This document shows, piece after piece, positions 3 through 18,500 of a stretch of DNA of 20,000 nt. This DNA is from an uncultured virus (IMG/VR IMGVR_UViG_3300005683_000076) (taxonomy: Duplodnaviria; Heunggongvirae; Uroviricota; Caudoviricetes), in IMG/VR virus record IMGVR_UViG_3300005683_000076; one strand, given 5' to 3'. A program made the translations under genes and the position numbers. The notes beneath the pieces are model-generated. The model ran no database searches, was not told where the DNA came from, and worked only from the letters and a program-made list of their open reading frames with translations. The number at the start of each line of letters is the position of its first letter. Position 1 is the first letter of the stretch.

Positions 3-3000
3 GTAAGTAGACTCACCGAAGACAAACTCCCCAGCGGTTTTGATCGGACCAAGAGCCTGTACTACTCGGTTGACTGGAGCTTTCACGCCTTCAGCTATCT
101 TATCTATTACCGTAGCCCTGCCGTCTCTCACTTCACTAATATCTGAAACTATATCTCCCGCATCAAACCAGTCCATCGCATCCCGCAAAGCCGTATCCGC
201 CTGAAACACCCTAGCCGTCCCATCCGGATTAGTGCCCACGATCAGGTGTGGACGCTTGCCTACGTCTGTCTTCATTAGCTGGTCTTCAAGATCAGGGAAT
301 ACCAAGTGATTCCACGCATTGATCGCAGCTGTAATGGCCATTAATTGGGCAGCACGTTTAGTTCCTACCAGTGCTACCTTACCAGCCACCTTCGTGCCTG
401 CCATTCCAGCAAGACGCGACTTACCACCTGCTTCATTCGGTATGTTAGCTATCATACGTACGTACCTGGGAGCGTTGATCTCACAGTTTCCTGTAATCAT
501 TACCTTTCCGTCCTGCCGCATGATCCACGTACTGTTGGCTGTCTTAGGGCACCACACCTGTCCGGTGTACTGCTCTTCAGTTCTCTGCCACTTGTGTACG
601 GAAATCTTATCCCTCCCTTTAACATACAACGCTGCGTGACCGGTTCCGCCCCTCTTATCGCGGATGTGGCCAGCCTTACCTAGCATGTAGCACAGGATCT
701 GGAACCCGTCCAGAACTGGTCCGCGGTTTTGCGGAAACTGTGTGGCTCCATTAGCTGAAGATCCTTCTGCCCGCATCATTGCGTCGTACATCGCCCGACA
801 CTCAGCCTGCCCCAATCTAGTGATGACTGACGGGAGATCTTCCTTTGTCTGGAAGACACTTCTGATTTTAGATATCTTCGGAGCAGACAACCTGAAACAA
901 ATTACCCCTGTCTGCGGGTGTACTGACTCAGAACTAATGTAGTCCTTAAATGTGTCGCGGATCCACTGAACCTCACCAGGCTTTTTCTGGTACAGCACTG
1001 CCTCGAACGAGTTAGGTGATTCTTTTCTAGTTCGAAAGTACCCGTCTGTAACTAAGAATCCTAGCAATGCCGCCTCAGTTTCATTGAGCACACTGCCGGT
1101 TGAGAACTCGTGCGGAGCTACAACAGGTAATTTGTGATGAGATTTGAGATCTTTGGCCAGAACAACTTTTCTCTTGTCCTTATATTGTTCGATGACCACG
1201 CAGCGGTGATCGGGAGTAAACTGGTACTTATGGCCAAAAGAATTATTCAGCGTTACCAGCGGCCCATCATAATCTAGCACGGCTTTATCTTGTACCGGCT
1301 GCCATTCCGTTGTCCGGGTCTCGATGTTGTAAGTTAACACTTCCTCTCCAAGAGCCAGCTCATCGTGGGCCTTCCACCCATCCCTAGTCAGGATCTCCGT
1401 GGTCGTAGGAACACACCACGAGTAGAAGGGCATCATATGTTTACGTATAGCTCTACCCGCCTCAGATATACCGCCGTAGTCGCCTACCAGTTCTCTAGCT
1501 ATCTTTGCAGCCTGCCTTCCTGGATTACCAGCAAGAGCATCCACCTGTCCGCGATTTGACGCACCATAGATAACATCCCCGTTAGCCAACCGTTGCTTGA
1601 TGTGCCTGTAAGCGGCCAGCCGGATCCAGTTCTCTCTGGCATTAGAGCTGTTCTTCATGGCATCCCACACCTTGTTCAGTCCTCGACTGAGAACATTGGT
1701 GTCTGAATCCGCAAAGATCTTAAACACACCGAGCTTACTGATGTCCGGGATCTCAGCAAATGTCTGGCCGGAATCCATCACGCCGTCCTTGATCGCCTGC
1801 TCGATCTCTGCAGCGGCCGCATGGTTCTTATCCCTACTGTACTTGTAGATGTCTTTAATAGCGGCCGGCAGCTCCTTTATAATTCCCGGGTACGCCATTG
1901 CAGCATCAAGGTCAGAGATGAAGTTTCTGATATTGTAAGACAGGTAGTTCTTCGGGTTGATCAGTGCCCACTGCTTCCACGAGGCCATAGCACTAGCCGT
2001 GGTCTGCTTGATAGCATTCTCGTGAGGCTGTACCTCGAAGTTGTCCATCAACTTAGCGACACCACTAGGAAGTACCCACTCAGGTTTCTTCTGCCCGCGT
2101 GCCAACGCTTCCCTCAACTCAGCCTCAGCTGTACTGAGAGTGTGCTTTCCGGAAAAGATGTCAGTCAGAAGTTCATCCGGAGCAGACATCACCTTATAGA
2201 AATAACTACCTTCCTGTGGCTGCCAGATCCTGTGAGTGCTCTTATCGACCAGCGTGTGCCAGTCGACGCCTTGTATCTTAGCCTGCAGCTTTAGATCGTC
2301 AGATATATCTACTGCACGTTTGATCTCTTGCAACAACTCGTACTTGCGTATCTGGGCGTGTGCCTGGGAGAGCCACTCCACCTCAGCTTCTACGTAGTTG
2401 GTGTTATAATCATCCCCATCACCGGTACGCTTCTTTTCAAATCCTTTCTTTCGTACACGCAGGTCACGATTGCCCATGCTCAGGAATAGGTTGTTCTCTC
2501 CTCCCTGCGGCACTTGTCGGTGGAAGTAGCTGTCGTTATTAAGGGCCTGCTCTCCGAGCATGTCGATCTTCACCAGATCACCGACCGTCTTTCTACGCAA
2601 CGCCTCCCTGTCCGCAAGAGCTTTAGAGATGGCCGGGTCTGCTTTAGCTGCATCCTCGTATTCCTTCAAAGACTTCTCTACGTCAGCAAGATCAATGTAC
2701 CCGTGACCGGGCTTCATTCCCTGCTCCACGGCCTTCTTCTTGTCCCGCAAGATAAGCACATTCTCGAACACGTCGTACTGTTCCCGGCTTAGAGGTTTGA
2801 TAATTCGAGCTACGTCATTGGTAGCTTGGGTCTTAGCCCAGCTGTTCAAGCTTGAGAGCAGCCGGAAAGAGTCCGCGGTTCTGGCCATCTGCACACTCTC
2901 GTTCGGATCGATCTCCTTGAACTGCCGCTTGAACTCTCGATAGATGTTGACTATCCGGTCCGCGATCTTCTGAGGGCTGGTCTCCACGTCCATGCCTCTG

Positions 3001-6000
3001 GCCTTTGCCATCCTCTCGGCAGCCACAGGGTTGGGGTTGGTGGCTAGAGGAGTACCAGTAGATTTCCGCGGCTTCCAGAATGCAGCCAGCTGCGGGAAGT
3101 TCTCATCGGTAAATGCCGACACTTCGTCCACGGCCTTCTTATCGAAGACTCTCTTGTCCTTCAGGGCCTGGGCGAACTGGATGCGACTGACGTCGATGTC
3201 CTCACCCTTGAAGATCACGTGGTTGTGGGTTTGTTTCTTAGGGTATTTGACTGTGAAGTCGGCAGTATTCAGGGCCTGAAGTTCCGTGAGTTTTTGCTTG
3301 TCCCACTCACCAGTAAGGGTCTTGTACGCCCAGTTAATAGCTTCTGTTTTTGCAGCTTCAATATCTACAGGCTTACCATTATTTATCTGGTTCTCTATGT
3401 TTGCAGCTACCCACGCAATAGCAGATTCTTTTGGAGTTACCTGGCCGCTGAACCTGGTAGGCTTTCCTGAGTACAAAACCTCTGGAGGTTTCCTACTGTT
3501 CTGGTCCAGGAACTTCAGACCCTTAATGCCTTTATCCTTCAGAAACTCACTGGCCAGTACATCTCCTCCACCTTTCTTCGACAGGAGTCCAAGCTGAGTG
3601 GTGCGGTCAAACTCTCGAGACATTCTCTTGTAGAGTTGTTCTCCGGTCCTGCTAACAGGATCATTCACACTGGGGTTGTCAGCGTCGTAGAAGTCATAGC
3701 CTCGACTATTATCAAACTCTCTGGCAATGTCTTGAATGTGCTCACCCTGGTCCTTGATTTGCCTGTCCAGGTGCAACAGGTCTTCATCCTTTACGTTTGT
3801 CTTGATGTGGTAGAGGTAGCCTGGGTGTGGCTCCGGCATCTCGATATCAAACTTGTCTGGATCTAATTGTTGGTAAGCCTCCACTACTTTTCTGTAGTAT
3901 TGCAATTTCAGCTTTGTGATCGCCATCCCGGGAGTAAGCTGGCCGGCCTTGTCTGCTTCTTCAAACCTGGCAATCTCCGTCTCGTACCAGTCGATCTGAT
4001 TTTGTATTGCCTCCTTAGCGTCTACCCGATTGTTATCCATCGCGGTAAACGTGCCCATTATGGCACCATTACGTAGGCTATCTGCGTCTGACGCTCCGGA
4101 AGCTTTGGCGTTATAGTCGAACTCCTTGCCGTCGTAGAGGAATCTTGGATTTGCATTGTCATGTATCCCAGCCTGCCTGTAAGTGCTAGCAACTCCGTGT
4201 GTCTCCGCAGCGTAATGCCCGTATCCGCGGAACTGTGAACCCTCACCTGTGTTGATCTTATCGTCACGGATGCGGCCGAGTGGGTACTTCTCGATCACCT
4301 TGTAACCTTCTGGGATCTGTGGGAGCCAGGAGTCTACGGAATGGAGCTCGCGCCCTGCCCTCTTAGAAGGGATTGCAAAGTCCTCAGGCTTTAAAGACTT
4401 GATAAACTCCACTGCACGGTTTTGGCTTATGTAATCATGTAGTGGAGCGTGAGTATTATTGTCTCTCCAGTGTTCCGCTGTTTTGAGTTGCTGAGACAGG
4501 GAGTCAGCAATAGATTTTGGTCGTTTAGGGTGTGTGACTTGCTGTTCGATAGCCTGTAGAATTTTCTGCTCTCCAATGGAGATCTCTTGGTCGGAATCAT
4601 ACAACCCCTTGCCACGGAATTTCATACCCTTTTCAGGTTTAGTCCGGACAATAATGTTCTCCCCTCTTCTGGACACACGCGTACCCACAGGGAACTTCTT
4701 CTGTTCTCCTTCAATGTACTTCCTCTCACCGTTAGGGCCTTCAACTAAGACTTCAGGTTTGAATAAGTGACGAGATCCGTGCTTGAGTTGGGCGAACTGA
4801 GGATCAATACTTCCGCCACTAGCTCTCCGCTTATTGAACTCAAGGATCGGACCGTACTTGTTACGCAGAGCTTCGATCTTCTTCTGGAACAGGGCCGAGC
4901 CAGAGCTCTGCATGTTAATTGCATCCTGTTCGTACCGCTTAAGTACTCCCTCCACGGCTTTGAACTGATCGCCGCCGGCATCTTTGTAAGCCTGACGTAC
5001 GTCCCTGTCCACTATTTCGTCGACAGTCTTGTCGGCAGCGGGGCGTGTATCAGACAGTTCGGCAAGCCTTTGTCGTTGTTTCCAGGCTTCGATGTTCGGA
5101 TCAGGTTTAGCAGGAGGTTGCCACTCTTTGATACCCAGCTTTTTATTGATAGCCTGAACATTCTTCAGATGTGCCTCTCTGGACTGTACGCTCCAGGGAT
5201 CTTCCTTGGCGACAGGAGTGCTAGGTTCTTTTGCTTTAGGAGTGGACTCTTTAGGTGCTTTGGTCTTGACCTGTTTAGCAACCTGGTGAGTATTGTAGGC
5301 CGTGTTCGCTTCAGCAATATCCTGAAGGTACATGCCATTATCCAGGAGGACAGACTCGTAGTCTCTAATAGCTGCGTCAACGTCAGTGCCAAACCGATGG
5401 TCCTCGCCTATGACGGAGTCAAGCTGTTCTCTGGTGACTTGGCCGCTTCTTTTTAATTGGTCTAGCTCCTTAAGCTTCTCGGTAATGAGGGCATTGTTGT
5501 GCTCGGCCATGGCCCTGACCACAGCTACACTTTCATCTGTTGGAAATACCTGCTGGCCCTGTACCCAAATCTTACCGTCCTCAAGCACACTTCCACGCTC
5601 GACAGCATTCGGATTCGGGACATACTTGCCGGTCTTCTTCGGAGCGGCAGGAGCAGCCGTGACCTCTTCAAAGATCTCCTGGTTGCGTGCTTCGGCCCCG
5701 GCCTTGACCGCGGTCTCCGGGACATCTACCCAGGCACGCTTGTCACCTAACGGTAACTCAGCTCCTGTCTCCAGGGCATCCTTCAGATCGAAGATGGCTC
5801 CACGTGGACTACGCCCATAGGAGTGCTCAGGGTTCCCTAGGATCTCCCCGATCTGCTCCCTAGTAGGAGCGCCCTTAGCCTGGAGCTCTTCTAGTTCCTG
5901 GATTGCCCGAGCAGCACGCCTTTCAAGTTCGGTCCGGTCGGTGACTTGGGAGAACCTTGGCTCGATAGGGCCTTCTCCACCTGGTCCAGTACCTGATCCT

Positions 6001-8936
6001 CGTTCAGCTGTCCCTCTGGTATCAGGCGAACTATGTCGTATGCCAGGTCCAGCCCCTCTTCCCCGAACTCCTGGTGTATTGCTCCCAGCAGCAGAAACCT
6101 CCGATGGCTTTCCTCCCGCCACTGGCTGTTGTTGTTTTCTTCTTGCATATAGGTTAAGTAAGTGCCCACGTCTGGCAAACTTAGTGGCAGCAGGGCTTAC
6201 ATCCTTGAGAGATGATGCGTACTGTAGGGTGTTCTCGTTATTCTCAGCCAGAACACGGAACACGTCTTTCAATGTTTGTTTGATTTCGTCGGTGGTCAGG
6301 CCTAGGTGCTCTTCTGCTTTCGGGCGGAAGGTCTGGGCGATCACCTCGTCCATTGCGTACGTGTCCTTTCTATTAGGATCACGGCCTTTGATTATATCAA
6401 ATACTTTCTGGACACTAGGCTTTTCAAGAAGCTTTGGCGTCTGTGCAGTAACACCGAAGCGTTCGTTCCGGATGTGGACACGCTCCTCAGCCTTAGTACC
6501 CTGCGTGATGTCGTCAAGGCCTTCGTACTTAGTGTAGAGTCCTGCCTCTCCAGCTGTCCGCTTCGTGACGTCGTTGATCTTGGCGATGAGATTCGAGATC
6601 TCCACCATCGAGGACGCGTCCTTTGCGAGCTGGGCCTGGTCGAGCATATTCTCCAGCTGCTTGATGAAAGCTCCGGAGTAGTTCGCGTATAGCGGCAACC
6701 CGTGGAAATCTCGGTAGCTGCCTGCATTTCCCTGCTCCTCTGCTATGTTTTTAAGCAGGTGGTTCAGGACAGCAGTGGCTTGCGGGTTAGCAGCAATAGC
6801 ATCAGGACCGTCCACGGTGAGGTCTGCTTCTCTAATGAGTTCAGACATGGGACGGTTCATCTCTTCGATGATCTTGTTGGAAGCGGCTAACTCCTGCTTG
6901 TTGTACGGAGAAAGGATCTCAACGTCAGCTACTTCCCCTTTAGGTACTTGTACTTCTTTGGCATTACCCTGCGGGTCTATCTGAAAAGCAACTTCATTGC
7001 CGGCAGGGTCTTTCGCTCGTACAGTTCTCCCGGCTAGCACTGAAACAGCATCCCCGAGACTAAAGATCGTATTGAAGATAGTTTCCTTGAGGGCCGTCTT
7101 AGGGTCCGCACCGGATGCCCGGCTTACCGGATAAGTAGCTGCACCCGTGAACGCCAAGGTTGCTGCCCCACCGCCGAGCTTGCTAGCTGCAGAACTGAAG
7201 CCTGCCTCCTCCAGCCCAGCCATCCACTTCTCGCCAACCGGTCCAGCATACTTAGCGATACTTCCGAATATGGCACCCTTAAAAGCCTCACTTGCGACTT
7301 TGTCAAAGTGCTCACCTCGGCCGGCTGATTGGGCAGCCATGTCAGCAGACATACCTGTGATCATTCCACCAGGCAGCTTAGACAGCAGCATGATCCTCGA
7401 GAGGTCTCCAGGCAGAGCACCTGCCATCTGGAAGATCTCGGCACGAGTCCCGCCGTACTTAGCCAACTTCTCAGCCGGAGCCTCAGAGGTCGCAGCGATC
7501 GAAGACATGTACTTGTAGATGTCGTCTCCCTGGTACGCCTTGATGTCTTCAAACTTGGAAGGATTGATCAGCCGGTGACCTTCCCCAAAGGGCCTGTGCC
7601 ACAGGTCATCGGCAGCCCGGTAGAGACCAGCCAGATCCCGCCAAGCACTGCCACCTGTACGCAGGGCACCAGCAATAATGTTCTGCTCATCTTCCATGCC
7701 GATCCACGGAGTTTCTAGTGCCTCAGTAGGTGTGATCGTGGAAGCCTTCAACGCATTGATTACTTCAGGAGTCAGGAGATTCTCAGGCGGGATCTGTTCA
7801 ATACCCACGCGAGACTGTGCCTGCCTCATCCGTTCGTCGGTCTGAGCTGCATCCTTGCCCTTGATATTCTCAAGGTCCTTAAGCGTGATCCAGATAGTAC
7901 CTTCAGTAGTATCATCATCAATTCTACCTTTCACCTTATACTGCCTACCAAGTTTAATGCCTTGCTCGATCTGGTCTGGGGTAAGGTCAAACTTGGTAGC
8001 AACAGATTCATAGGCCTTTCGGATGGAGTAGTCTAGCTTTTCCGCAGTGGGAACTCCCTGAACATTGACGGTAACTTTTGCGGCAATGCCGTTGCTGTCG
8101 GTAGCCTTACCTGCCTGACGCGGAAGATCCACTTGTACACCGGTATCAACAAACTGGCCGGCGGACGTGTCGATCGGAGTCAGGTTCCCGACGTCCACGG
8201 TGACAGTTCCTTCACCTACCGGAGCTTTAGGTTTAGCTTTGATCGGAGCCGCAACCTTATTTTTCCTAGGTTGGAGTGTCGGTCTGTTGGACGGTATAGA
8301 CGAATTATCTAGTGTGTTTGTATTTACAGGGGCATACCCTGGAGCGGGATTGGTAGGTGTGGTAGCGGTACCAGTTATTAAGGTCTCGATCTTCTGCTTG
8401 AAGTTGTCATCAACCTCCGGAGATGCAGGAGAGATCAAGCTCTCGAGGTGGGCCCTAAACTCGTCATCGCTGACAGTGGTAGGAGCAGCAGGAGCACTGG
8501 CCTTGACCTGTCCCGGCAAGATACCTTGAGCCGCCAGCCTCCTCTTGGAATTTAACCAGGCGTCAAAGCCCTGCTTCTTGTAAACATCGAGGGCAGCCTT
8601 TGCATTGTAAACAGGATCAGTAGCCAGCTTCTGCGGATCGTATTGCGGGTTGGCAAGAGTGTTGATTTGCCACAGTCCGTAGGAAGACTCTGGAAGTTTC
8701 TGTCCTTCACCTGCCCTGCGTACACGTGTGGCCCCCGGGTCGCCAGAGCTTTCCTTCAATGCCATTTCTGTCATGTAAGGGACGTGCTCTTCCGGCCACC
8801 CAGCCTGTCGAAGAATGTTCTCGAGATCCGGACGTGTATAAATGGAAGGAGCCGGCCTTGTGGGGGTCGGCTTTGGTTCCAGTTTCTTGAGCCCGCCCAG
8901 CAGGCTCTTCAAGAAGTCGTCGTCGTTGTTTACCAT
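3..8936 (-). CDS. Giant (>=2978 aa, 3'-truncated by window) polyvalent internal virion/ejection protein with lytic transglycosylase, ART-like domain and intein
   Basis: ATG at 8936 directly follows TAG TAA of the upstream gene. Manual translation (MVNNDDDFLKSLLGG...GPIKTAGEFVFGESTYP) shows no stop down to the window edge, which explains its absence from the ORF track. Multiple recognisable motifs lie in this single frame. Confidence 0.93.
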   Translation of the reverse strand, partial: MVNNDDDFLKSLLGGLKKLEPKPTPTRPAPSIYTRPDLENILRQAGWPEEHVPYMTEMALKESSGDPGATRVRRAGEGQKLPESSYGLWQINTLANPQYDPQKLATDPVYNAKAALDVYKKQGFDAWLNSKRRLAAQGILPGQVKASAPAAPTTVSDDEFRAHLESLISPASPEVDDNFKQKIETLITGTATTPTNPAPGYAPVNTNTLDNSSIPSNRPTLQPRKNKVAAPIKAKPKAPVGEGTVTVDVGNLTPIDTSAGQFVDTGVQVDLPRQAGKATDSNGIAAKVTVNVQGVPTAEKLDYSIRKAYESVATKFDLTPDQIEQGIKLGRQYKVKGRIDDDTTEGTIWITLKDLENIKGKDAAQTDERMRQAQSRVGIEQIPPENLLTPEVINALKASTITPTEALETPWIGMEDEQNIIAGALRTGGSAWRDLAGLYRAADDLWHRPFGEGHRLINPSKFEDIKAYQGDDIYKYMSSIAATSEAPAEKLAKYGGTRAEIFQMAGALPGDLSRIMLLSKLPGGMITGMSADMAAQSAGRGEHFDKVASEAFKGAIFGSIAKYAGPVGEKWMAGLEEAGFSSAASKLGGGAATLAFTGAATYPVSRASGADPKTALKETIFNTIFSLGDAVSVLAGRTVRAKDPAGNEVAFQIDPQGNAKEVQVPKGEVADVEILSPYNKQELAASNKIIEEMNRPMSELIREADLTVDGPDAIAANPQATAVLNHLLKNIAEEQGNAGSYRDFHGLPLYANYSGAFIKQLENMLDQAQLAKDASSMVEISNLIAKINDVTKRTAGEAGLYTKYEGLDDITQGTKAEERVHIRNERFGVTAQTPKLLEKPSVQKVFDIIKGRDPNRKDTYAMDEVIAQTFRPKAEEHLGLTTDEIKQTLKDVFRVLAENNENTLQYASSLKDVSPAATKFARRGHLLNLYARRKQQQPVAGGKPSEVSAAGSNTPGVRGRGAGPGIRHSSPDTRGTAERGSGTGPGGEGPIEPRFSQVTDRTELERRAARAIQELEELQAKGAPTREQIGEILGNPEHSYGRSPRGAIFDLKDALETGAELPLGDKRAWVDVPETAVKAGAEARNQEIFEEVTAAPAAPKKTGKYVPNPNAVERGSVLEDGKIWVQGQQVFPTDESVAVVRAMAEHNNALITEKLKELDQLKRSGQVTREQLDSVIGEDHRFGTDVDAAIRDYESVLLDNGMYLQDIAEANTAYNTHQVAKQVKTKAPKESTPKAKEPSTPVAKEDPWSVQSREAHLKNVQAINKKLGIKEWQPPAKPDPNIEAWKQRQRLAELSDTRPAADKTVDEIVDRDVRQAYKDAGGDQFKAVEGVLKRYEQDAINMQSSGSALFQKKIEALRNKYGPILEFNKRRASGGSIDPQFAQLKHGSRHLFKPEVLVEGPNGERKYIEGEQKKFPVGTRVSRRGENIIVRTKPEKGMKFRGKGLYDSDQEISIGEQKILQAIEQQVTHPKRPKSIADSLSQQLKTAEHWRDNNTHAPLHDYISQNRAVEFIKSLKPEDFAIPSKRAGRELHSVDSWLPQIPEGYKVIEKYPLGRIRDDKINTGEGSQFRGYGHYAAETHGVASTYRQAGIHDNANPRFLYDGKEFDYNAKASGASDADSLRNGAIMGTFTAMDNNRVDAKEAIQNQIDWYETEIARFEEADKAGQLTPGMAITKLKLQYYRKVVEAYQQLDPDKFDIEMPEPHPGYLYHIKTNVKDEDLLHLDRQIKDQGEHIQDIAREFDNSRGYDFYDADNPSVNDPVSRTGEQLYKRMSREFDRTTQLGLLSKKGGGDVLASEFLKDKGIKGLKFLDQNSRKPPEVLYSGKPTRFSGQVTPKESAIAWVAANIENQINNGKPVDIEAAKTEAINWAYKTLTGEWDKQKLTELQALNTADFTVKYPKKQTHNHVIFKGEDIDVSRIQFAQALKDKRVFDKKAVDEVSAFTDENFPQLAAFWKPRKSTGTPLATNPNPVAAERMAKARGMDVETSPQKIADRIVNIYREFKRQFKEIDPNESVQMARTADSFRLLSSLNSWAKTQATNDVARIIKPLSREQYDVFENVLILRDKKKAVEQGMKPGHGYIDLADVEKSLKEYEDAAKADPAISKALADREALRRKTVGDLVKIDMLGEQALNNDSYFHRQVPQGGENNLFLSMGNRDLRVRKKGFEKKRTGDGDDYNTNYVEAEVEWLSQAHAQIRKYELLQEIKRAVDISDDLKLQAKIQGVDWHTLVDKSTHRIWQPQEGSYFYKVMSAPDELLTDIFSGKHTLSTAEAELREALARGQKKPEWVLPSGVAKLMDNFEVQPHENAIKQTTASAMASWKQWALINPKNYLSYNIRNFISDLDAAMAYPGIIKELPAAIKDIYKYSRDKNHAAAAEIEQAIKDGVMDSGQTFAEIPDISKLGVFKIFADSDTNVLSRGLNKVWDAMKNSSNARENWIRLAAYRHIKQRLANGDVIYGASNRGQVDALAGNPGRQAAKIARELVGDYGGISEAGRAIRKHMMPFYSWCVPTTTEILTRDGWKAHDELALGEEVLTYNIETRTTEWQPVQDKAVLDYDGPLVTLNNSFGHKYQFTPDHRCVVIEQYKDKRKVVLAKDLKSHHKLPVVAPHEFSTGSVLNETEAALLGFLVTDGYFRTRKESPNSFEAVLYQKKPGEVQWIRDTFKDYISSESVHPQTGVICFRLSAPKISKIRSVFQTKEDLPSVITRLGQAECRAMYDAMMRAEGSSANGATQFPQNRGPVLDGFQILCYMLGKAGHIRDKRGGTGHAALYVKGRDKISVHKWQRTEEQYTGQVWCPKTANSTWIMRQDGKVMITGNCEINAPRYVRMIANIPNEAGGKSRLAGMAGTKVAGKVALVGTKRAAQLMAITAAINAWNHLVFPDLEDQLMKTDVGKRPHLIVGTNPDGTARVFQADTALRDAMDWFDAGDIVSDISEVRDGRATVIDKIAEGVKAPVNRVVQALGPIKTAGEFVFGESTY
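486..1415 (-). mobile_element. Intein (310 aa) with LAGLIDADG homing endonuclease, in frame within giant protein
   Basis: Block A CVPTTTEILTRDGWK (Cys1 1413-1415); block B FTPDHR; LAGLIDADG-like helices LLGFLVTDG and MYDAMMRAEG; block F YTGQVWCPKTANSTWI; block G MITGN followed by +1 Cys (483-485). Exteins rejoin as PFYSW/CEINAPRY. Confidence 0.93.
3189..4781 (-). other. ADP-ribosyltransferase-like (ART-PolyVal-type) domain with large insertions
   Basis: Ordered motifs: KHGSRHLF; PLGRIRDDKINTGEGSQFRGYGHYAAETHGVASTYR; GYLYHIK...LLHLDRQIKDQ; TGEQLY; ASEFLKDKGIKGLKFLDQNSR; THNHVIF. These match the HGSPH / IGTGEGAQAYGxGLY / LDWDKPLSEQ / GIxGIKYLD / NYVVF pattern I recall from phage polyvalent proteins. 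Confidence 0.72.
5891..6148 (-). CDS. Nested (overprinted, +1 frame) small acidic helical protein, 85 aa from ATG 6148
   Basis: MQEENNNSQWREESHRRFLLLGAIHQEFGEEGLDLAYDIVRLIPEGQLNEDQVLDQVEKAL... has globular amphipathic composition, while the host frame over the same span becomes a G/R/P/S/T-rich linker (AGGKPSEVSAAGSNTPGVRGRGAGPGIRHSSPDTRGTAERGSGTGPGGEG). AT-rich leader before the ATG. Confidence 0.6.
   Translation of the reverse strand: MQEENNNSQWREESHRRFLLLGAIHQEFGEEGLDLAYDIVRLIPEGQLNEDQVLDQVEKALSSQGSPKSPTGPNLKGVLLGQSRN
6330..6500 (-). other. Degenerate zincin/MPTase-like motif region of giant protein
   Basis: TKAEERVHI (EExxH in place of HExxH, aa 817-821) followed 43 aa later by MDEVIAQ, resembling the downstream Glu helix of polyvalent-protein metallopeptidases. 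Confidence 0.45.
8547..8840 (-). other. Lytic transglycosylase (lysozyme-like/SLT) domain of giant protein, aa ~33-130
   Basis: MALKESSGDP (catalytic Glu62, 8751-8753), SYGLWQIN, DPVYNAKAALDVYKKQGFDAW match the E-S, GLxQ and downstream motifs of SLT/lysozyme-like domains. Confidence 0.88.
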
Positions 8937-11652: not shown

Positions 11653-13575
11653 TTAATCCTCGGGCAGCTTATAGTTATGAACGCCTATGTCGTTCTGCCA
11701 AAAGCCTTTCTCGGTTCCTTTTAGTGAGATTTTTACGGTGTGTCGTTTTGCGAAATGTTTGATTACAGCGTCTACTTTAACTATACCATTTCTAGTTAAT
11801 ATAGTATCATATTCTGTCAAGCGGTGCAAGGGCGTACCTACAAAGTCTATATCACTTGTGAATACCGGGTGTGACTTAGAAGCGGTCAGCTTATAGTTCC
11901 CGGCTATTAAAGTATAGACGTCCTGCGGAGGTATTACCTGCGTCTCATAATCCACTGGAAAACCGTTCCTGTTTATGATCTTGTACCGGTGCTGGCTATC
12001 TACCAGATCTACAGCCTTGATAGGTCCGTGGTCCGTTTCGATCAGATCATCAAATACCGGGCAATATCCGCCACCACCCGGGGGTACGTTTCCACCACCT
12101 CCACCTGAAGTACCTTGGTCTCCGCTGGTAGGAGCAATAGATACTCCACGCTTAGCCTCAAAATCTAACGGGCACCTGGTGAACAAACCGAACTTGTCAT
12201 CTAAAGACACAAGATCCACTAACAGTGCGTGATCAGATCCGCTGCCACTGAACCCAGTGTCCATTCCCATGACTAACCACTGCTTGTCCGAGGTGTTACC
12301 TAGGTTGTAGTCACTGGGAACTACGATATTCATGCGGCCAACTCTCCATTCGAGAGCAGATGCCGGCCTGAAGTTTGCAGCAGTTACCTGGGTCTTAGCG
12401 ATGTGCCTTAGCCTGGTCGGAGTAGGAAAGCCTCCTACGGTGTTGTTAGCCGTGCCGTAGTCGTAATAGGTATTGGCCGGGTAGGGGAACTTTAATCTTT
12501 CATACGTAGCACCGGTCTTCCTGTAAACTTCAGTTCGGACTACTCCAGGTTCCTGCGGCCACGACAGCTCCACGTAATTGGTAGTACTGAGCGTGGCATT
12601 AGTGTTTGCTATTGTCAGGGTAGTTGTACTGATCGTTGACCCGTCGGCCATGTACATCAGGACCATATAGTCTCTCGATGTCGCACCGGTAGTACCCTGC
12701 TGTGATCCTGTAAGGGCAGGCCTTTGTCCTTCGAGAAACTTCCTCTGGCCGGCGGAGTTGTCCCAAAGCCCACCAAAGAAATCTACGAACACCTCGTCCT
12801 CTCCACCTACCTGCCCGCTAAGCTTATAAATAAACGTCAGAATGTATTGCTTTGACGGGACTATCGTGTTGTATGCCAGTGGAAATGTCAGCGTATTCGA
12901 CGCGTCACTCCACCTGGCCCAGCCGTTGGTCTTGTCATAATCCGGATTACTTACTGTAGTAGCATACCGGGTATGAGTCGTGGTCTTTAGAGCTGTGTTA
13001 GTAGCAAGATTCGCATCTGCATTAACGTCGGTAGAGTCTTCTTTTAACTGTAAAAGCCTGAAGCGTACACGCCCGTTAGTTACCGTAGTAGAAGCCGCGA
13101 CTGCTAAAGTACAAGTAGTAGATGATCCTGGAGCACCGTTGATCGTAGTGACCAGGTCCGCACCAGCCACTCCGGCACCATAAACAACTATCTCCTTGCC
13201 TGCGTCACCAGCCACAAAATCAGCAGTATCGATAGTAAGAGCAGTAGATGCAGCCGTGACTGATCCAGTGGTGTCAATGCAAGTATCTTTCGGGTGAGCG
13301 TAGACATGAGCTGCTTCAAGAGATACGTTACCGTCCTCCCCCGTACCTCCAGCAAAATCAGTAGTATAGAGATACCTATTACGGTCGAAGTGAAAGTCTC
13401 CATTTCTAATGTGATTCTGGTGCCCGTACTCCGTAGCAGAATTTGCATTCTCTATCACGGTTTGCAGAGCACCCCCCTGCTCCTGCTGGATAGTAGAGAG
13501 TGCCTTGATCTGTCGCTCCAGGGACTGTACACGCCCGAGGAATTCAACTGTATTTAGATCTGTCGGAGTCGGCAT
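11653..13575 (-). CDS. Tail-associated structural protein (640 aa) with C-terminal Hint autoprocessing domain
   Basis: N-terminal coiled coil, T/G/A-rich beta domains including an FN3-like segment (NYVELSWPQEPGVVRTEVYRK), poly-Gly linker, then Hint domain. Confidence 0.85.
   Translation of the reverse strand: MPTPTDLNTVEFLGRVQSLERQIKALSTIQQEQGGALQTVIENANSATEYGHQNHIRNGDFHFDRNRYLYTTDFAGGTGEDGNVSLEAAHVYAHPKDTCIDTTGSVTAASTALTIDTADFVAGDAGKEIVVYGAGVAGADLVTTINGAPGSSTTCTLAVAASTTVTNGRVRFRLLQLKEDSTDVNADANLATNTALKTTTHTRYATTVSNPDYDKTNGWARWSDASNTLTFPLAYNTIVPSKQYILTFIYKLSGQVGGEDEVFVDFFGGLWDNSAGQRKFLEGQRPALTGSQQGTTGATSRDYMVLMYMADGSTISTTTLTIANTNATLSTTNYVELSWPQEPGVVRTEVYRKTGATYERLKFPYPANTYYDYGTANNTVGGFPTPTRLRHIAKTQVTAANFRPASALEWRVGRMNIVVPSDYNLGNTSDKQWLVMGMDTGFSGSGSDHALLVDLVSLDDKFGLFTRCPLDFEAKRGVSIAPTSGDQGTSGGGGGNVPPGGGGYCPVFDDLIETDHGPIKAVDLVDSQHRYKIINRNGFPVDYETQVIPPQDVYTLIAGNYKLTASKSHPVFTSDIDFVGTPLHRLTEYDTILTRNGIVKVDAVIKHFAKRHTVKISLKGTEKGFWQNDIGVHNYKLPED
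11674..12063 (-). other. Hint (intein-like/BIL-type) domain, aa 505-634, no endonuclease
   Basis: GGGGY/CPVFDDLIETDHGPIKAVDL (Cys at 12061-12063), block B LTASKSHPVF, C-terminal TVKISL...FWQNDIGVHN followed by YKLPED-stop. Confidence 0.85.
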
Positions 13576-15353: not shown

Positions 15354-15584
15354 TTAGCTTACGTCTGGGTCTTGTACTCTGGTAGCTTGTGCTGCAAGGT
15401 CTAGTTTTACGCGGTATGCCTTGACTACATCCTTGGAGAACTGTCTGATGATGAAATCCCTGAACTGTCCCTTTGTTGCACCTCGAGGATCCTCAGGTCC
15501 GGTCCACCCGTAAGTGTCGGCAAAAGCATCTCGCATCTCTGGATTCAAGGCGTCGTTTTGAAAATTAACTGATAGTGTCCACAT
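15354..15584 (-). CDS. Small protein downstream of tailspike (76 aa), possible fibre/spike accessory or chaperone
   Basis: ATG 15584 (MWTLSVNF...) lies 5 nt after the tailspike stop and is preferred to the track's overlapping start at 15614; its stop abuts the next ATG. Confidence 0.6.
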   Translation of the reverse strand: MWTLSVNFQNDALNPEMRDAFADTYGWTGPEDPRGATKGQFRDFIIRQFSKDVVKAYRVKLDLAAQATRVQDPDVS

Positions 15585-15589
15585 AAATA

Positions 15590-18500
15590 TTACGGTAAGA
15601 GGCTGACACGCCATCTAGAAGTCGTGCCGTCATACATGGCGATCGCACACTTGCCGGCCGCCAAGGCCAGGTCTGCTCCTGTTGTAGTAAAGAATTGGTT
15701 AGCTGCGGTTGAAGTAACTTGGTGCTTCAGTGTGATCGTATTTGTCGTACCTACGTTCCAGATGAACAACTCCTGGCCGTCCACGCCTGCTACTATTCCG
15801 GTAAGGTTTACTGCAGATGAAGCACTGAGGCGTAGATGGCGAGCCGTTCCCGGATTGTAATTATCTGTGTTAGCAGCAAGTGCGGTAGGGGAGAGAGGTA
15901 CTGAACTGAGCGTTGCATTGCCGGTGGACCCATCAGTCAATTTGATAACCTTGGCAGCGGCTCTGGCCAGGCCAGTGTCTGCTGCTCCAGTTACGGCATC
16001 CGCTGTGGAGCTCCAATTGAATGCTCCAGCACTGCGAACTGTCCAACCACTACTACCTATGAACGCACCGTAACGTGCCCCGCCGTAATAGAAAGAGATC
16101 GCACCATTTGTGGCTCCATCAAGCTGTATACCCAACGGGAAGGCGGCGTTGCTTGTATCGATAAAATGAATGTTTGCGGCCGAGGTGCTGTTAGACGCAG
16201 GAACTACTACCTGCCCGTTAGACTTGATCCTGAATAGATCTCCGCTAGAGCCTGCACTGGAGTCAATCTCTAATAGATTTCCGGATTGCGAAGCTGCAGC
16301 CTTGATGTTGAAAGGAACGTCAGCGGCCGCTCCCGATGTAATCTTGAGCTGGCTCGATGCCGCACCGTAAGTCAAGTTAGCTGATGCTGAGAGGGCCTGA
16401 GATCCGTTCTCATAAAGAACCCGATTCACGCCGCCGCCTGTTACTGTATTACCTACGGTCAGTCCGCCGATAGTTTCTATCTTGTCGTAAACGTCGTTCT
16501 TTGTAGGAACTTCGTTAGATCCATTCCAGGAGACACCGTACGCCTCACCCGGAACAGTAATATCCCCGGTAGAACTTACTGAAGGACTTGACAGTTCGAT
16601 CGGACCGGATGCCTGTATCAACATCCCGGCAAGGCTACTGCCAGCCAGAACATATCCTTTGTCCTGGTATCCGTCCCCAGTAGCAGTACCTCCTACTCCA
16701 AGAGCCATGCGGGCATTGCCGTCTCCGCCGGTCTGTAAAGACTGTATCTCTGTGTAGTCAGTAGTTGCCCCACCTGCCACACCTAAGTTTCCGCCAGAGT
16801 AGGTAAAACGTGAAGATGTTGCCACGTTCTGGGAAGCGTCTTCGTAAATAACGCGGTTAGCTCCGCCGCCAGTGACGGCATTGCCAACAGTAATACCAAT
16901 AGTCTCTACCTTGTCGTAAACGTCGTTCTTGGTTGGGACTTCATTAGATCCGTTCCACCCAACACCATAGGCTTCTGCTGGAACTGTTACGTCTCCGTCA
17001 AAGTTATAGGAAGTGAACGCAGGATGGCTGCCATCAAATTCCAAGGCACCAGTGCTGGAGTTACGGTAAATGTCGTAGCCGACAAAGTCTCGGTTGGAGT
17101 CGAGTATACCTAAGCGGAACTGCTTCTCGTTCTCGGTAAGGACCTGCAGCCACGGGTCTGTGCTTGAGGCACCAGATGCACCGGTTCGTGTGACTTTGAA
17201 TCTGTCTTGGACCTCGTACTCCGGTCCACCCCATAATGGTTCTCCTGGAGCGTCTACGCGGACAGTTCCGGGGTAAGCGTTAATACTGGTATTGCAGTGA
17301 ACGTTCTCTAGGCCCATCGCAGAGTAACCGGCAATTGTCTGCAACATCTGGGTCTTACCCCTGATGATGACGTGCATTGCACCGGACTCGTTGCGAATTG
17401 TTTTCGGCCAACACTGGACAGAGTCCAGCATAAGAGTACCGTAGTCGCCGCCCTGAATACGGATAGCGTGACCGATAATGCCGCCTACGATCGAAATATT
17501 ATTCTGAACCTCACCAACTACAATGTTATTGTTGATCTCCATGGCACTGAAGTACCCTTCGATCCAGCAGCCATTGATGTGCAGAGAACGTGCCGGCCCT
17601 TCGATAAGAAAGGCAGCCTGTGGAATGGTCGCCGCCGGAGCAACTCCAGCAATGTGCGAGGAACTTGTGAGATCGTTACTTATCCCGGCACAGGTGACAT
17701 TTTCAATAGTGACATTGAACGTAGCGTCATTGGCTGCCTCGTCTAGCGTACATAAGTAGAAATCACTAGACCCATTCCAGCCAACGTTATACTCGAGCAT
17801 GACATCTTTGTGCTTAGCCAGGGCCTGAGCAGCCGCTTTAGCAATAAGAGTTGCTGTCGTGTGTTCCGTGGTTGTAACTGGAAAAGTAACGGTCGGGCCT
17901 ACGATCGAATTGCGGGTAATGACGCATCTTGCATTACCTGACGAAGTGATACCGGACGGTGCCACTACGGTCTGCTTAATTGCCTGTCTGGATCCAGGAG
18001 AACCAAACCCGCCGGCAAACTCCACGCCATTAAATCCAAGGTATCCGCACCCGACAGAGCCTATATAAACAGCTTTTGAGGTGTTGGTGGCCGCCGCCAG
18101 TATCTGCCCATCATAGTTAATGACAGTGTTGTTGGCGTTTACATACAGCCCGATCTCGCAGTAACTTAAAGTACAATCCCTATCAAAACGTACCTGTCTG
18201 AATGCACCGTTTCCGGAGGCATCATCGATAGATACACCAGTTGCCGCAGCCTGGATCTTGACGTTCCTACAGACAAAATCCAATACATCTACTGTGCCTG
18301 AAGGTGCAGCTAGCGAAATTCCCACTGATCCTGGCCGGCTGTCACACCGCAGCATCAGATCACTCAAGTGGGTACTCCACATCGCAGCTGCTAACTGCTT
18401 GAATATCTTGGCGTTATCTACCGTTACTTTTAGGGTAGTACCTTTGGTGACTCCAGAATCTAATACGTTACCGCCGCCTTCACCTTTAATATGGGTATAG

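Follow-up and report, generated by a model that had tools for sequence, protein, structure and literature searches.

A candidate small gene nested within a disordered linker of a giant phage protein

Can a disordered linker within a giant phage protein conceal a second gene that is read in another frame? The question arises in a 20,000-nucleotide stretch of DNA from an uncultured tailed virus (Caudoviricetes; IMG/VR record IMGVR_UViG_3300005683_000076), i.e. the window of our analysis, in which a giant gene occupies positions 3..8936 of the minus strand (2978 codons within the window, with the frame exiting at the window's low end). An earlier note on this DNA, made from its letters alone, had proposed that an open reading frame (ORF) in the +1 frame of this gene is an overprinted gene, and an ORF of 85 codons is indeed present at 5891..6148 (minus strand), running from an ATG at 6148 to a TAG at 5893-5891. 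As also claimed, its product (9.6 kDa) is acidic (isoelectric point 4.74; D+E 14 versus K+R 8, no Cys), and the ORF coincides with a linker of the giant protein that is rich in G, R, S and P (amino acids (aa) 936-993; 5958..6131, minus strand), in which 74% of the residues are G, R, S, P, T or A, in which L, I, V, M, F, W and Y together make up 5 of 58 residues and in which codons ending in A are in excess. Our preferred answer, to which we assign a probability of about one half, is that this ORF is a real, internally started embedded gene, the product of which binds the upstream domain of the giant protein.

Two lines of evidence, the signature of the start site and a predicted docking, are independent of the protein-like look for which the ORF was selected, and each of them is uncommon under the null. 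As to the start site, a Shine-Dalgarno (SD) motif is found at none of the ten annotated starts of the window (8936 ... 19944, minus strand); these lie in A-rich, structure-free windows with a median minimum free energy (MFE) of -3.0 per 53 nt, which indicates a host with SD-independent initiation. SD-less initiation at unstructured, A-rich starts has been described for Bacteroidetes (PMC6847099, PMC3155529). Most minus-strand gene starts adjoin the stop codon of the preceding gene. In the candidate start region (6123..6173, minus strand; 42% A), the MFE over the 53 nt centred on the ATG (-25..+27) is -2.6 kcal/mol, which places it among the least structured 1.1% of the giant gene's 1243 windows, and structure as weak as this is seen at 2.8% of 71 out-of-frame ATGs. 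The candidate also has the least structured first ATG of all alternative-frame runs with an ATG (17 of 23), and 0.07% of 3000 synonymous resamples of its 53 nt reach an MFE of -2.6. Structure is weakest right around the ATG, with a profile like the mean of eight annotated starts (minimum at 0 to +12). The host codons at this site (TTA CTT AAC CTA TAT GCA AGA AGA AAA CAA CAA) reflect minor, A- or T-ending choices, i.e. TTA (15 of 209 Leu codons), CTA, TAT (20 of 88 Tyr codons), CAA and AAA, and it is TAT that creates the ATG. By these measures, the surroundings of the candidate ATG resemble those of the annotated starts in this genome. Use of the same unstructured patch by an in-frame GTG (V938) is unlikely, with the minimum ~26 nt upstream of this GTG versus 0 to +12 at real starts.

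The second frame also resembles the genes of this genome in its codon usage. With a log-odds score trained on the ten minus-strand genes and applied to 85-codon windows, the +1 frame reaches +11.1, which tops all other +1 windows (maximum -9.5) and corresponds to the 5.9th percentile of in-frame windows, while the host frame in this region scores -3.5, lower than all 563 in-frame windows. Among 23 same-strand alternative-frame runs of at least 60 codons, the candidate is the only one with a positive per-codon score (+0.106; others -0.07 to -0.41) and, given an open frame, its score has P = 2.6e-4 versus synonymous resampling with gene-wide codon usage. The codon usage of the second frame is compatible with that of the genome's genes, and it is so by way of composition: 35 of the 86 host codons in the region end in A (19.2 ± 3.8 expected, P = 5e-5), the highest count in the whole gene, and this excess is limited to host codons ~910-990. 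Accordingly, the Gly codons of the region include 8 GGA among 15, compared with 52 among 207 elsewhere, and the Pro codons 5 CCA among 8, compared with 23 among 149. The earlier note had described a preference for xGA and xGG codons, of which the xGA half is borne out by the excess of A and the xGG half is not, as G at host position 3 drops to 0.20 from 0.29 gene-wide. T at this position is unchanged (0.26), the rare codons CCC, CGC and ACG are absent from the region, and other G/R/P/S-rich stretches have third-position A (A3) fractions of 0.10-0.37 without a comparable excess. Next-base context was rejected as a cause of the A3 excess (21.6 expected, z = 3.44), and a generic cluster of rare codons is unsupported, the bias being A-specific.

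The protein that hosts the ORF has 3210 amino acids in full (P0003) and is encoded by the largest member of a minus-strand operon. Its N-terminus carries an SLT_3 lysozyme-like domain (aa 42-126, E = 8.7e-12), the sole Pfam family above the cut-off, and PHROGs and NCBIfam gave no match on it. The peptidase-like region that the earlier note had placed beside the ORF was not recovered (no Pfam family above the cut-off in either flank), nor did searches of Pfam and NCBIfam reveal a toxic or peptidase domain for which the product could serve as inhibitor or immunity partner, as had been suggested. The domain directly preceding the linker (aa 700-929; 6150..6839, minus strand) belongs to no known family.

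Five proteins of the giant-protein family were found, i.e. P0003 (the window's own) to P0007, and none in the length class of 371-1227 aa. P0004 and P0005 are 97% identical in the region, with a linker identical to that of the window; P0006 (62% in the region) and P0007 represent diverged alleles, available as protein sequences only. All alleles read the host frame through the linker, with the shared motifs YAR.KQ, G.G.G and DT.G...RG, and the host-frame linkers are homologous (Smith-Waterman score 81 versus 34.5 ± 6.7 for shuffled sequences, z = 7.0). Since the relatives align with the host frame through the linker, a compensated frameshift peculiar to the window is excluded, and so is an assembly error, because contigs of four runs from four studies span the linker without indels there. 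P0007 retains the upstream domain and the linker and has a different module directly after them; therefore, the linker belongs to the upstream module, with which it moves as one unit in the relatives. More generally, the relatives are mosaics, in which near-identical blocks alternate with blocks that are replaced or ~45-60% identical, e.g. aa ~240-650 (window ~6990-8220) and aa ~1380-1900 (window ~3240-4800), and the linker lies at one such junction.

By its predicted fold, the product would be a helical hairpin with a floppy end. AlphaFold2, run without an alignment, gave a mean predicted local distance difference test score (pLDDT) of 79.7 and a predicted template modelling score (pTM) of 0.63, with 47 of 85 residues at 90 or above. 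Helix 1 comprises residues 3-42 (6023..6142, minus strand) and helix 2 residues 50-63 (5960..6001, minus strand), with an I-P-E-G turn at residues 43-46; the low-confidence tail (residues 64-85; 5894..5959, minus strand) overlaps the host stretch where conservation resumes (EPRFSQVTDRTELERR...). As a control, a 111-aa +1 ORF at 6395-6727 yielded a pLDDT of 53.8 and a pTM of 0.18, with no residue reaching 90. Compared with permutations that keep the frame open and the codon counts the same, the product is poorer in G+P (6 residues versus 9.2, P = 0.007), carries a smaller helix penalty (P = 0.003) and has a stronger hydrophobic moment (P = 0.019). The earlier note had let the ORF end at an RFSQ motif, yet its stop is at host codons 1014/1015, ~19 codons beyond RFS (aa 994-996), and it is only the folded part (residues 3-63) that ends there.

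A complex prediction with the adjacent domains, which the earlier note had proposed as a check, passed on the upstream domain. With the product, host aa 700-929 and host aa 996-1110 as three chains without alignments, product and upstream domain reached a complex score of 0.80; the best of three controls scored 0.00, as did a control in which the partner was kept and chain 1 was swapped for an unrelated protein. In the calibration of this procedure, 51 of 78 solved complexes and 2 of 108 mismatched pairs attained the mark; the mismatches that did so, elsewhere counted as four, scored 0.34-0.59, well below the 0.80 of the product. The runs have 50% or more of their contacts in common, and the pLDDT of the partner is 65 or higher. 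The predicted interface places product residues 10-45 against host aa 820-897, including a helix pair at aa 866-897 (I-A-Q-T-F-R-P-K-A-E-E-H-L ...; 6246..6341, minus strand), and includes host residues A867, Q868, F870, R871, P872, A874 and E875, which are invariant across P0003-P0006; W10, F18, L21, L33 and Y37 of the product and L889 and F893 of the host also belong to it. The prediction supports docking of the product on this conserved pair of helices in the upstream domain. Of the earlier proposal, then, a nested gene that partners a neighbouring domain is backed by codon usage, ATG context, predicted fold and complex score, all of them signals from a single genome.

From what was computed, i.e. 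the ORF, its codon bias and start context, the predicted fold and docking and the module boundary, we infer translation, binding in the cell and a function of the product along the following lines. Ribosomes would initiate at the internal ATG at 6148 on a long late mRNA, where a local A-rich, unstructured window would mark this ATG, as it does at the annotated genes of this SD-less phage. Translation would yield an acidic 85-aa protein consisting of the helical hairpin (residues 3-63) and the floppy tail, with helix 1 of the hairpin binding in trans to the helix pair at aa 866-897 (motif AQxFRPxAEEHL) in the upstream domain of the giant virion protein. The product may thus act as a bound partner, a cap or an assembly chaperone of this domain. 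The giant protein would tolerate the overlap because its own frame there is a disordered G/R/S/P linker, such that the structured part of each frame would sit over an unstructured part of the other. As the linker and the upstream domain form one recombination module, the partner gene would stay linked to its cognate domain.

The strongest competing explanation is that only the giant frame is translated and that the ORF is a by-product of linker composition: an A bias of other cause (unstructured GC-rich mRNA, local GC compensation) would make the +1 frame rich in E, D, Q and L, helix-prone and gene-like, with the ATG, its start-like context and the docking being coincidences or artefacts. We consider this quite plausible, if short of an even chance, and a substantial body of observations speaks for it and against an embedded gene. 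To begin with, +1 stops are scarce in the linker because a +1 stop requires a host NTA or NTG codon and NTN codons are few there; T at host position 2 amounts to 0.137 in the region versus 0.232 gene-wide (1.8th percentile). The candidate ORF is part of a stop-free +1 run of 101 codons (5894-6196), open from host codon 913; resampling with the host protein and the gene's codon usage gives a probability for such a stop-free +1 frame of 0.044 (101 codons) or 0.11 (85 codons). The giant gene has 124 +1 runs, the longest of which have 116, 101, 88, 80, 78 and 78 codons. A run of at least 101 codons has a per-ORF P of 0.008 and is expected 1.1 times per gene, and the probability that the longest run of a gene reaches this length is 0.71, 0.72 and 0.50 in three tests (codon-permutation and synonymous) modelled on Schlub et al. 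(PMC6188560). The length of the candidate ORF is within chance expectation and does not single it out as an overprinted gene.

Composition may likewise account for the gene-like codon usage. All 23 long alternative-frame runs beat the synonymous null (z = 0.8 to 3.68, the candidate being highest) because they were chosen as open and, given the region's codon counts in addition to an open frame, the +1 score of the candidate is ordinary (P = 0.16). The anomaly is therefore one of codon composition rather than codon order, which could have another cause. One candidate cause is a general compensation between the GC content of the first two codon positions (GC12) and that of the third (GC3), which are negatively correlated phage-wide when the linker is left out (r = -0.23, P = 7e-4). 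This explains a part only, as it predicts a GC3 of 0.44-0.49 and no rise in A3, whereas the region shows a GC3 of 0.20-0.30 and an A3 residual of z = 3.55 and 2.63. Another is mRNA structure, which the real codons of the linker weaken (-87.9 versus -99.6 ± 7.1 for resampled sequences, P = 0.057; other windows -74.6 ± 9.8). An origin by slippage is unsupported, no tandem repeat having been found.

Start context and predicted structure have their own weak points. Unstructured 53-nt windows form 43 clusters in the 20 kb and hence are not rare, and among six internal unstructured sites with an ATG, five, including the candidate, are not gene starts; the sixth is at 15584. Besides the candidate, four out-of-frame (+1) ATGs in unstructured windows inside genes, which are followed by short frames only, are found at 4438, 8011, 12503 and 12965 (minus strand). 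The small gene at 15354-15614 (minus strand; 86 aa) has its structure minimum at the ATG at 15584 rather than at 15614, and the corresponding ESM Atlas sequence begins at residue 11; this gene probably starts at 15584. As to structure, the statistics on fold and helicity are post hoc because the ORF was picked for its protein-like look, and AlphaFold was run on one control only. The complex job, with its three chains and no alignments, was unlike the one used for calibration, and the docking of an amphipathic helix on a cut-out fragment may be an artefact.

Searches for homologues of the product, which the earlier note had suggested, were negative throughout: none was matched in 1.84 billion protein representatives, in Pfam, PHROGs and NCBIfam or, by tblastn, in phage records, and its fold had no match at E <= 0.001 in the PDB or BFVD. 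Its ESM Atlas recognition of 1949, with no usable look-alike, is under the value of 2300 that 91 of 100 proteins of known families reach; by comparison, the real 86-aa protein encoded at 15354-15614 finds viral look-alikes at 0.88-0.89. DNA relatives of the region were found neither in phage records (blastn, tblastn) nor in the IMG/VR or GTDB collections, and a scan of metagenome contigs returned the window's own contig only (L001). Positions 4000-7200, whole or in part, recur near-identically in 20 entries from 14 studies, which come from metagenomes of sludge, wastewater, freshwater and aquaculture; five of the entries are RNA. Among contigs of four DNA runs, those of one (X2) show no differences in 5891-6148, with just five in 5100-6920, and a further 12 differences must belong to the other runs, too few for statistics on suppressed synonymous variation. 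Contigs of the three others (X6, X12, X15) gain one base after 4694 and lack one at 4699 when compared with the window, which amounts to a short compensated frameshift in a difference-dense patch of the giant gene.

The diverged alleles do not favour the second frame either. No obligatory +1 stop, as far as one can be inferred from proteins, was found in them. However, the best-case identity of a +1 product is 55% at a host identity of 43%, compared with 62% at host identities of 45% and of 56% in flanks without the ORF. Of the 48 host residues that differ between the window and P0006, 37 force a change at host position 2, which hits the first base of a +1 codon (37 of 83 aligned +1 codons), ten require position 1 only and one is position-3-only or ambiguous; the flanks show 87 position-2 and 50 position-1-only changes (odds ratio 0.47, P = 0.07). 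Indels of the relatives fall inside the predicted helices: two codons are added at product residue 25 and six at residue 30, and residues 55-62 are missing from P0007. A best case for the core in P0006, with 15 of 22 identities possible, carries no signal (control windows 14.07 ± 1.27 of 22). Overall, the proteins of the relatives are neutral to unfavourable and argue against a product conserved across the alleles, as judged from protein sequences; they may be compatible with gene loss in one lineage.

What speaks against a compositional by-product is that the bias is specific to A, and not to rare codons or to A+T, that GC compensation misses the observed GC3 and A3, and that several features would have to coincide, namely the gene-wide maximum of A3, an ATG made by TAT, a structure minimum centred on it, a confident fold and a complex score of 0.80. 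ORF length and absent homologues carry little weight either way for an orphan of 85 codons. In our judgement, it is the start signature, the docking and the A-specific codon bias that together lift a low prior for an embedded gene to roughly even odds.

If the ORF is an embedded gene, which of the two frames came first? Overprinted pairs have been described in which one frame is structured with genome-like codons and the other is disorder-prone with atypical codons (PMC3744397; bioRxiv 10.1101/229690), and by the codon-usage rule it is the linker of the giant protein that would be the younger frame. Since the embedded frame looks older, a stop-loss fusion across a small gene is suggested, a route also sketched in a paper on spanins (PMC6139136): two virion-protein genes would have become one when a stop codon was lost, and the small partner gene between them would since have been read in another frame as the linker, which would be the overprint. 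The small gene would still be active from its internal start, with its hairpin clasping the upstream helix pair. This history is speculative, and we hold it to be possible rather than probable.

The same signs of age could also be those of a relic, i.e. of a helical sequence that once was coding, either as a part of the giant protein before compensated frameshifts or as a small gene swallowed by a stop-loss fusion, and that is now untranslated, with the signals as its fossils. A more genome-like codon usage of the +1 frame is the mark of the ancestral frame in proven overlaps (PMC3744397), and of the two frames, the disordered one should be younger (Rancurel et al., cited in PMC6139136); the predicted packing on the directly preceding domain would fit a former segment of the same chain or of a neighbouring gene, and the linker lies at a module junction, with P0007 diverging just after it. 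We nevertheless regard a relic as very unlikely, as three alleles share the host frame through homologous linkers and the product matches no main frame (best E = 2.7 and 1.7 against P0006 and P0003). Moreover, any shift would be older than alleles that are 43-56% identical, and an unselected open frame, ATG, start context and codon usage should have decayed since.

The least probable of all is a programmed +1 frameshift between host codons ~913 and ~937, which would yield a truncated protein of ~1000 aa with a C-terminal hairpin folding onto the preceding domain, as the +1 frame being open from codon 913, the predicted packing of the hairpin and a tandem AGA-AGA with an A-rich run at codons 932-937 might suggest (tandem rare Arg codons can provoke +1 shifts, and no universal motif is known for +1 sites), but inspection of codons 913-940 by eye revealed no X XXY YYZ heptamer, slippery site or in-frame stop, Arg is often encoded by AGA in this gene (36 of 171 codons), neither P0006 nor P0007 retains the tandem Arg (YARQKQ), and a structure minimum centred on the ATG fits initiation better than slippage.

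How would an embedded gene at this position compare with known systems? The closest precedent is Rz1 of phage lambda, which is embedded in the +1 frame of Rz and binds Rz, and such genes are missed by gene callers; among two-component spanins, 182 of 528 are embedded (PMC6139136). The candidate resembles Rz/Rz1 in being a small gene wholly within a larger phage gene, in the +1 frame, with its own start and a product that binds the product of the host gene, this binding being predicted only in the present case. It differs in that its product has neither a Cys nor a lipobox and in that its host gene encodes a 3210-aa SLT-bearing protein of virion type rather than an i-spanin, for which reasons an embedded o-spanin was rejected, and also in that the embedded frame is structured and the disorder lies in the host frame. 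With the overprinted viral pairs studied by Rancurel et al., Pavesi et al. (2013) and Willis and Masel it shares the asymmetry of order and disorder and of codon usage; those pairs, however, are backed by conservation or expression, whereas the candidate is known from the sequence of one genome. In length, it is like the chance ORFs considered by Schlub et al. (2018; PMC6188560), as it fails such tests once 124 runs are counted. The chance ORFs of the window, in contrast, are without a gene-like codon score, a start-like ATG or a confident fold.

Some further features of the window were observed along the way. The giant protein contains an intein of ~310 aa at aa 2508-2817 (window 486-1415, minus strand), which begins with CVPTTTEIL and ends with ITGN ahead of a +1 Cys; it is present in P0003 and P0004, while P0005, P0006 and P0007 are uninterrupted there (YSW-M/L-EINAPRYV). 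Its match to the Pfam family Intein_splicing is below threshold (20.3 versus a cut-off of 35.8 bits), and it includes LLGFLVTDGY, which we take to be an endonuclease-like motif. Plus-strand ORFs antisense to the giant gene extend up to 229 aa (4767-5456), and one of them (5941-6537, plus strand) overlaps the candidate region, with its third codon position coinciding with that of the host frame; antisense ORFs in this register are commonly long by chance. The linker region has no Rfam family and no promoter-like or terminator-like site, and the whole window no tRNA gene. The 640-aa protein encoded at 11653-13575 (minus strand), with a weak match to the pectin-lyase-type phrog_32881 (E = 4.8e-6) that is the sole PHROG match among the ten annotated proteins of the window, may be a tail fibre or depolymerase.

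Standard gene callers do not see embedded genes, of which spanins provide most of the known examples in tailed phages. If the ORF turns out to be a by-product, it is a warning that linker composition alone can yield gene-like codons, a confident AlphaFold model and a passed docking. The case suggests a simple screen for further examples in SD-less phages that combines the codon score of alternative frames with a start-like minimum of mRNA structure. If, on the other hand, the ORF is an embedded gene, it would be a second and unrelated case, its site being a disordered linker within a giant virion protein of many domains and its product being predicted to bind to the domain next to it. Coding capacity could then be concealed in such linkers of giant phage proteins, with a structured frame nested in a disordered host frame. 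A partner gene in a linker would keep the partner and its cognate domain together through module swaps, and this may be a general, overlooked way of carrying trans-acting subunits.

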